Positions 7,926-8,436 of a stretch of DNA of 18,295 bases are shown here, piece after piece. Every line of letters starts with the position of its first letter. Position 1 is the stretch's first letter. The position numbers and the translations under genes were made by a program. This DNA comes from a virus. Lineage: Duplodnaviria; Heunggongvirae; Uroviricota; Caudoviricetes. Where the stretch lies: the IMG/VR virus record IMGVR_UViG_2737471838_000005, one strand, 5' to 3'. Below the pieces are notes generated by a model. It had not been told where the DNA came from, made no database searches, and saw only the letters and a program-made list of their open reading frames with translations.

Positions 7926-8235
7926 TCTACATTCCTTAACTTGAGCCTTTCGGCATAAATGGTTTGCATAACAGAAACGACTTCGTACTTAATTGGAGAG
8001 ACTCAAAGAAGGAATAAGTGAATAACACCTGAAATGAGAACTGCTTTAGTAAACTACTTCGTATATCGTCTGTTCTTCAAACCGACGCAGTCATTAACTC
8101 ATAGTTGAACATATGAAGCAATGTTTATTTTAGACATCCAGCCACCTTCAATCCTATCAAAAAAGTAGTTTTCTCCAGGAACGTGTGTATGGTGCACCAG
8201 GTTATCAGTATTAAGGAGTTTTTCTGTCCCCTAAA

Positions 8236-8436
8236 ATGACAGGAATTGTCAAAAACTTTGACGGCAAAAGCGGCAAGGGTCTTATCACCCCATCCGATGG
8301 TCGTATCGATGTCCAGCTTCATGTTTCAGCGCTCAATCTCCGCGATGCAGAAGAAATTACCACCGGATTACGCGTGGAATTTTACCGGATAAATGGTCTG
8401 CGTGGCCCTTCAGCTGCCAATGTTTACCTTTCATGA
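8236..8436 (+). CDS. cspF: Cold-shock-domain protein (CspF/CspH-like), 66 aa from first ATG
   Basis: [66 protein letters not shown], a divergent CSD lacking the canonical aromatic RNP residues as in CspF/H. See finding on the start codon. Confidence 0.75.

Follow-up and report, generated by a model that had tools for sequence, protein, structure and literature searches.

The cspF locus and its prophage setting

The window, by which we mean the whole stretch of 18,295 nt analysed here (Caudoviricetes, IMG/VR record IMGVR_UViG_2737471838_000005), contains a small cold-shock gene with an unusual start region. Its 66-aa product reaches 141.1 bits against NCBIfam NF012007 (CspF subfamily), above the cut-off of 111, and 109.8 bits against the CspH equivalog, below the cut-off of 141. 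Escherichia coli strain S43 is 100% identical to the window over the region probed, and RefSeq names the gene cspF there. According to the RefSeq feature table the S43 gene lies in a Qin-type cryptic prophage, between the divergent cspB on one side and a small ORF and the ydfT antiterminator on the other; the synteny, with divergent cspB upstream and ydfT downstream, matches that in the K-12 feature table. RefSeq (PGAP) starts the S43 gene at CTG, with a length of 70 aa and without a pseudogene flag (WP_024172454.1; 9125-9337 of the S43 locus, corresponding to 8224-8436 of the window). Judged from its sequence, the gene is cspF, which encodes a cold-shock-domain protein and belongs to the Qin-type cryptic lambdoid prophage of E. 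coli. The features of the gene, its start region and its neighbour are, in window positions:

7710-7925, minus strand: cspB, the divergent neighbour, with an ATG start; its cspA-type thermoregulator leader extends to 8086
8212-8214, plus strand: in-frame TAA overlapping the Shine-Dalgarno sequence, which rules out any start farther upstream
8213-8218, plus strand: Shine-Dalgarno (SD) sequence AAGGAG, read from the sequence
8219-8223, plus strand: spacer TTTTT, giving an SD-to-CTG distance of 5 nt
8224-8226, plus strand: CTG at the conserved start position of the family, the RefSeq start of WP_024172454.1
8224-8436, plus strand: cspF coding sequence as annotated by RefSeq, 70 codons plus stop
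8230-8232, plus strand: codon 3, CCT (Pro), against an Arg codon (CGT or CGA) in the family; on the B haplotype (see below) it goes together with the CTG
8236-8238, plus strand: first ATG, codon 5, 17 nt from the SD and 12 nt past the CTG

The Rfam model of the cspA thermoregulator (RF01766) matches the cspB leader and coding region (7663-8086, minus strand), and this is the sole match near the cspF leader, over which Rfam gives no annotation. A second thermoregulator match (4800-5185, minus strand) covers the leader and coding region of cspI. A promoter and terminator scan of 7900-8700 returned no sigma-70-like site upstream of cspF at the scan threshold and no terminator. In the S43 prophage (2845-4007, 7644-7858 and 13690-16060 of the S43 locus) an IS3 insertion is present, the essD holin gene is frameshifted, and IS3/IS30 insertions replace part of the prophage next to rspA. 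The sequence around S43 cspF shows the signs of a visibly decaying prophage. Within or beside the truncated ydfJ end of the prophage, Rfam further matches IS009 (RF02111, 219 bits; 35-233, minus strand).

Anatomy of the start region

The TAA, the CTG and the ATG share one common frame, which remains open to the TGA at 8434-8436, and codons 2-4 after the CTG read TCC CCT AAA. Neither ATG, GTG nor TTG occurs between the SD and 8236, and the mechanical ORF list places the gene start at 8236, from which 66 aa are read. The ATG at 8236 encodes the internal Met conserved throughout the CspA family and is a possible fallback start for a 66-aa product. Together with the preceding T, the SD can form seven contiguous pairs with the anti-SD (UAAGGAG) versus six in K-12 (UAAGGA). 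An earlier note on the window had described this layout (AAGGAG, 5 nt, CTG, an ATG at 17 nt from the SD and an overlapping TAA), and our reading of the sequence confirms each of these elements at the positions listed above.

The change relative to K-12 is of a different kind than the earlier note had assumed. In K-12 MG1655 the aligned start region reads AAGGAA-TTTTT-TTG-TCC-CGT-AAA-ATG, against AAGGAG-TTTTT-CTG-TCC-CCT-AAA-ATG in the window, and K-12 CspF is annotated from the TTG (3127-3339 of the K-12 locus record). The note had given the K-12 protein correctly as MSRKMTGIVK, but its first codon is TTG and not ATG. The proposed start-codon substitution is present in the allele, but the ancestral and K-12 codon that it replaced is TTG. 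The note had offered reduced expression or non-canonical initiation as outcomes, and these are still to be expected from the substitution, although the premise of an ATG ancestor was wrong. From the alignment, the change is a T-to-C transition from TTG to CTG and not the loss of an ATG, so that an already weak start became weaker. Loss of a canonical ATG relative to K-12 can practically be dismissed, as the K-12 DNA has TTG and no sampled family member has ATG at this position. Overall the window cspF differs from K-12 at four sites, none of them synonymous: the start codon, R3P, T11N and C54Y (8384).

Conservation of the start in the cspF/cspH family

A scan of one genome per species yielded 30 loci, which together with sampled E. 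coli genomes and phages gave 24 distinct 75-nt start regions. TTG occupies the position of 8224 in 21 of these. They stem from at least six genera, with Escherichia, Shigella, several Citrobacter, Salmonella (diarizonae and arizonae), one Enterobacter and two Klebsiella, and from four phages (HannyBb, PhiR42_1, 2H10 and PhiR63_1). Of the remaining three, two have CTG and belong to the B haplotype, and the third is a degenerate copy with a 2-nt deletion in the start region (L035). Across the 21 TTG sequences no change is seen in the TTG, in the AGG core of the SD, in the 5-nt spacing or in the downstream ATG, while the spacer bases and the upstream leader vary; in K-12 and most of the family the SD is AAGGAA. 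With core, spacing, codon position and ATG invariant in a leader that otherwise varies freely, the start arrangement is, on this comparison, not a product of chance. The same conservation of SD, spacing and codon throughout the family bears out the proposal of the earlier note that the SD is positioned for the CTG: as far as the alignment tells, it serves the codon at 8224 and not the ATG at 8236.

Most of the variation in codons 2 and 3 among the 21 sequences is synonymous (TCC/TCT and CGT/CGA), the exceptions being TTC-CAA in two Klebsiella loci and TGT in S. arizonae. Because of this mostly synonymous variation, and because TTG, SD and spacing are invariant, the comparison indicates that the MSRK N-terminal extension is translated from the TTG. 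Measured against the family architecture (SD, 5-nt spacer, TTG, Ser-Arg-Lys, ATG), the window keeps the SD, the spacing and the ATG, and has CTG in place of TTG and Pro in place of Arg3. The deviation lies within the gene and gives no reason for exclusion from the CspF/CspH family. That the whole family keeps an invariant TTG, with an in-frame ATG 12 nt farther on, suggests that a weak start codon has been selected for, and one idea is that sensitivity to the level of IF3 during cold shock may be the reason. Among the cspH copies sampled, none has the CTG variant.

CspF and CspH have been described as the most divergent Csp paralogues, and are reported to be inducible by cold and urea and inactive in the assays used (PMC9947658; PMC11648934). 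The start codon of either gene is not discussed in the papers that we found on CspF/CspH, and a search of the literature on the cspF/cspH start codon and of the Onc112/retapamulin small-protein preprint returned neither a statement on the cspF start site nor an experimentally mapped N-terminus or footprint at this codon.

A few further copies were recorded during the family comparison. In phage HannyBb the TTG-type cspF is unannotated, and three short "hypothetical proteins" have been called on the opposite strand instead; its leader follows B at 8196 and 8200 but A at the SD and start, so that this copy, too, is a mosaic. Contigs of a Veillonella parvula MAG and a Mucilaginibacter MAG (L032 and L022, respectively) carry E. 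coli-type cspF or cspH identical to Escherichia alleles, most likely through binning contamination.

The B haplotype in the E. coli population

AAGGAG, CTG, R3P and T11N together form what we call the B haplotype, in which the SD change and the CTG always occur together. We followed it with a probe of 78 nt (8185-8262) that has no 28-mer in common with the K-12 type. Of 5426 complete E. coli genomes, 255 match the probe, and in 251 of these the match is exact; cspF of any type is present in approximately 1632. That 251 independent complete genomes, and in addition a phage genome, carry the identical 78-nt segment excludes a sequencing or assembly error as the source of the CTG. The earlier note had reasoned that CTG in other strains, together with a protein N-terminus at MTGIVK and normal abundance, would make it the normal arrangement; other strains do carry it, but CTG is, given its distribution, a minority derived state.

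The carriers fall into two forms. The H7 type, in which the 3' part is also of B type, accounts for 206 records at 99% identity or more plus 11 at 95-99% (about 217). It lacks 1 nt after codon 26, diverges by about 10% farther on, and has lost the 3' end of the gene and the small ORF through a deletion of 258 bp. In about 85% of the CTG carriers, then, cspF is a frameshifted, 3'-truncated pseudogene. The frameshift is present in all seven B-type chromosomal copies that were read (one of them from E. ruysiae), and RefSeq flags all five annotated E. coli copies (H7, A23, ATCC 25922, Es_ST80 and GF131) as "frameshifted; incomplete". The H7-type form further occurs in E. ruysiae, a MAG contig and phage Tritos. 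The S43 type, which is the form found in the window and has an intact ORF, is represented by 39 records at 99% identity or more plus strain HS-01 (about 40), and its ORF is identical in 31 records from varied hosts and countries. Strain ZYS9073 carries the S43-type cspF region both on the chromosome and on a 115-kb record (NZ_CP159531.1) that was counted as a plasmid; the second copy may have arisen in assembly or by duplication of part of the prophage.

After correction of the frame, nine synonymous and eight nonsynonymous codon differences separate the B-type gene from K-12. Nine synonymous differences are too many for pure drift after pseudogenisation, and we rejected this as the source of the B divergence. 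Because of this ratio, B is, as its codon differences tell, a diverged lineage that evolved under some constraint for much of its history. The CTG may have coexisted with a working gene in the B lineage.

Recombinant origin of the window allele

A three-way alignment of S43, K-12 and H7 divides the region into two parts:

8090-8255, no strand assigned: B-haplotype block, with 18 of 18 informative sites as in H7 and unlike K-12; the intergenic region between cspB and cspF and the first 11 codons of cspF fall within it
8263-9696, no strand assigned: K-12-like sequence (A haplotype), with every informative site as in K-12 and not H7, to at least 9696

The breakpoint falls at 8256-8262, within cspF codons 11-13. 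In H7 the divergence runs on without a break from about 8090 to about 8809. Most simply, recombination would have joined a B-type 5' end to an A-type (K-12-like) body. The reading frame is intact here because the 3' body is of K-12 type; full B-type copies are frameshifted and truncated. The start codon, R3P and T11N changes came with the B block. Both this recombinant nature and the difference in the SD (AAGGAG versus AAGGAA in K-12) go beyond what the earlier note had reported.

Three observations concern the surroundings of the breakpoint. The cspB leader ends only about 4 nt short of the start of the B block at 8090, and the cspB promoter region is therefore also of B type in this strain. 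A candidate -10 hexamer of cspF, identified by eye only, lies at 8188-8193. It is TATAGT in K-12, while the B haplotype has TATGGT owing to an A-to-G change at 8191, which could lower transcription as well. Downstream of cspF, a 29-codon ORF with a hydrophobic tail (ATG at 8491, within 8480-8580; RefSeq hypothetical protein WP_122985911.1) has a ribosome-binding site, GGAGAG-TTTTT-ATG, similar to that of cspF; it differs from K-12 at 8537 and is wholly deleted in H7-type genomes.

Expected translation and selection on the allele

The ribosome-binding site of cspF and cspH appears to be built for a UUG: AAGGAA, a 5-nt spacer and UUG would yield Met-Ser-Arg-Lys-Met-Thr-Gly, with the later AUG read as an internal Met. 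In reporter assays AUG, GUG and UUG support initiation at 10-100% of the AUG level, while CUG reaches 1-2%, as do near-cognate codons generally (about 1-2% of AUG); infC and pcnB are the two confirmed cases of such starts in E. coli (bioRxiv 10.1101/063800). Because of these reporter values for UUG and CUG, the cost of the substitution is put at about an order of magnitude, so that the 70-aa form would be initiated at about one-tenth of the level of the UUG allele, or lower. The extra SD pair may regain part of the loss. The AUG at 8236, at 17 nt from the SD and without an SD of its own, would at best contribute weakly, as the 66-aa form. The net prediction is a low output of the 70-aa and the 66-aa form alike.

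The start codon may also be affected by RNA structure:

8221-8245, plus strand: predicted 8-bp hairpin UUUCUGUC / GACAGGAA (8221-8228 / 8238-8245) with a 9-nt loop, which contains the CTG and abuts the ATG

The hairpin is predicted in both haplotypes, with -8.9 kcal/mol for C versus -6.2 for U, as a U.G pair becomes C-G. It is indistinguishable from shuffled sequence (z-scores -0.98 and -0.09), and the family sequences contain no compensatory changes, the variation being of coding type only. On account of the weak z-scores and the lack of compensatory changes we do not attribute the T-to-C change to RNA structure and retain the hairpin as a minor modifier.

Alternatively, initiation might move to the AUG at 8236, yielding a 66-aa CspF that lacks Met-Ser-Pro-Lys but keeps the whole cold-shock domain and largely retains its function. 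AUG is a strong codon, here in an A-rich context (CCUAAAAUG), and R3P would be harmless if the extension is untranslated. CspC, CspD and CspE naturally lack this N-terminal extension, which counts in favour of such a start, and 66-aa forms of both alleles have already been annotated by several submitters and gene callers. However, the SD lies 17 nt away, outside the optimal SD-start distance of 5-9 nt (PMC7264876), and no other SD is present in CTGTCCCC. In the predicted hairpin the G of this AUG is paired, and the structure is about 2.7 kcal/mol more stable in the window allele. The same AUG is moreover available in the TTG alleles, yet TTG is invariant there, so the AUG is evidently insufficient. 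We therefore regard a shift to 8236 as unlikely.

The frame of cspF in the window is open over 8224-8436, and disruptions occur only in the H7 type and in strain MB10; CTG stands in place of the canonical start codon, and the ATG that follows is poorly positioned. The variant S43-type records, a small sample of eight without a TTG control, comprise G17D in three, G17S in one, a frameshift in one (MB10, annotated as a pseudogene), an in-frame deletion in one (HS-01, 6 nt in strand beta1) and a synonymous change in one, the eighth (L053) combining G17D with a non-coding change. This spectrum fits relaxed constraint on the S43-type gene.

A working CUG-initiated gene, in which AAGGAG at its ideal 5-nt spacing compensates for the codon and adequate amounts of the 70-aa CspF are made, would agree with the strict linkage of the SD change to the CTG and with the intact, identical ORF of the 31 records. 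PGAP annotates the CTG as the cspF start, and CUG is among the four best near-cognate codons (bioRxiv 10.1101/063800). On the other hand, CTG is conserved nowhere else in the cspF/cspH family, most of its carriers (about 85%) have a pseudogene, a single additional SD pair is unlikely to regain a loss of about ten-fold, and the S43-type variants are mostly damaging. We consider such compensation very unlikely. In a highly improbable extension of the same thought, the S43-type gene would be maintained naturally in E. coli with initiation at CUG; more broadly, the UUG of the family would be a selected, IF3-sensitive start of low efficiency that tunes these proteins in cold or other stress, and CUG a further step in this direction.

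On the preferred reading, which we consider probable, the start of cspF in the window is hypomorphic or nearly null and this gene of a cryptic prophage is decaying. The allele would accordingly be a hypomorph or near-null of a dispensable prophage gene that drifts towards a pseudogene. The sequence anatomy, the conservation in the family, the population frequencies, the mosaic structure and the annotation are direct observations; the lowered expression and the loss of function are what we infer.

Significance

For biology at large the finding carries little weight: it is a start-codon polymorphism in a dispensable gene of a cryptic prophage, and RefSeq already holds it as a CTG start. From its sequence the allele is probably an ordinary variant, a minority recombinant that is poorly translated and decaying. 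The correction of the premise, namely that the family start is an invariant TTG and not ATG, leads to a by-product of more note, which is the strict conservation of UUG four codons ahead of an AUG across cspF and cspH. The natural allele pair AAGGAA-TTG and AAGGAG-CTG offers a test, in native context, of the trade-off between SD strength and a near-cognate start. For annotation, the locus is a caveat that a seemingly intact gene can be a chimera of the 5' end of a pseudogene and a functional body. Databases disagree on the CspF start (70 aa versus 66 aa), and the common allele is no exception: for the K-12 type as well as the window type, both 70-aa and 66-aa (ATG-start) forms of CspF are found in public protein collections (e.g., ACA77718.1, 66 aa).

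Comparison with known systems

The closest known counterparts are K-12 cspF, the B-type pseudogene and cspH. K-12 cspF (b1558, Qin prophage, WP_000087756.1) shares the locus, the synteny, the position of the SD, the spacing and the internal ATG, and is 95.8% identical to the window over a 381-nt region. It differs by TTG with AAGGAA, where the window has CTG with AAGGAG, and by the R3P, T11N and C54Y changes of the window, whose 5' 166 bp stem from a different haplotype. The chromosomal paralogue cspH, beside cspG, has the same start region as K-12 cspF (AAGGAA-5 nt-TTG-TCC-CGT-AAA-ATG) and is likewise annotated from TTG; it is found in nearly all E. coli genomes. It occupies another locus and has a protein identity of about 76%.

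The B-type pseudogene of H7, A23, ATCC 25922 and phage Tritos is identical to the window over 8090-8255, including AAGGAG, CTG, CCT and AAC. Beyond this block it has the 1-nt deletion after codon 26, the divergence of about 10% and the 258-bp deletion, where the window is K-12-like and intact.

With infC and pcnB, both of which start at AUU and are the two confirmed non-canonical starts of E. coli, the window allele has in common a near-cognate codon at the correct distance from the SD. The non-canonical starts of infC and pcnB are conserved, and that of infC serves the autoregulation of IF3. In contrast, the CTG of the window is a derived minority polymorphism confined to the B haplotype, in a family of which 21 distinct sequences have TTG.
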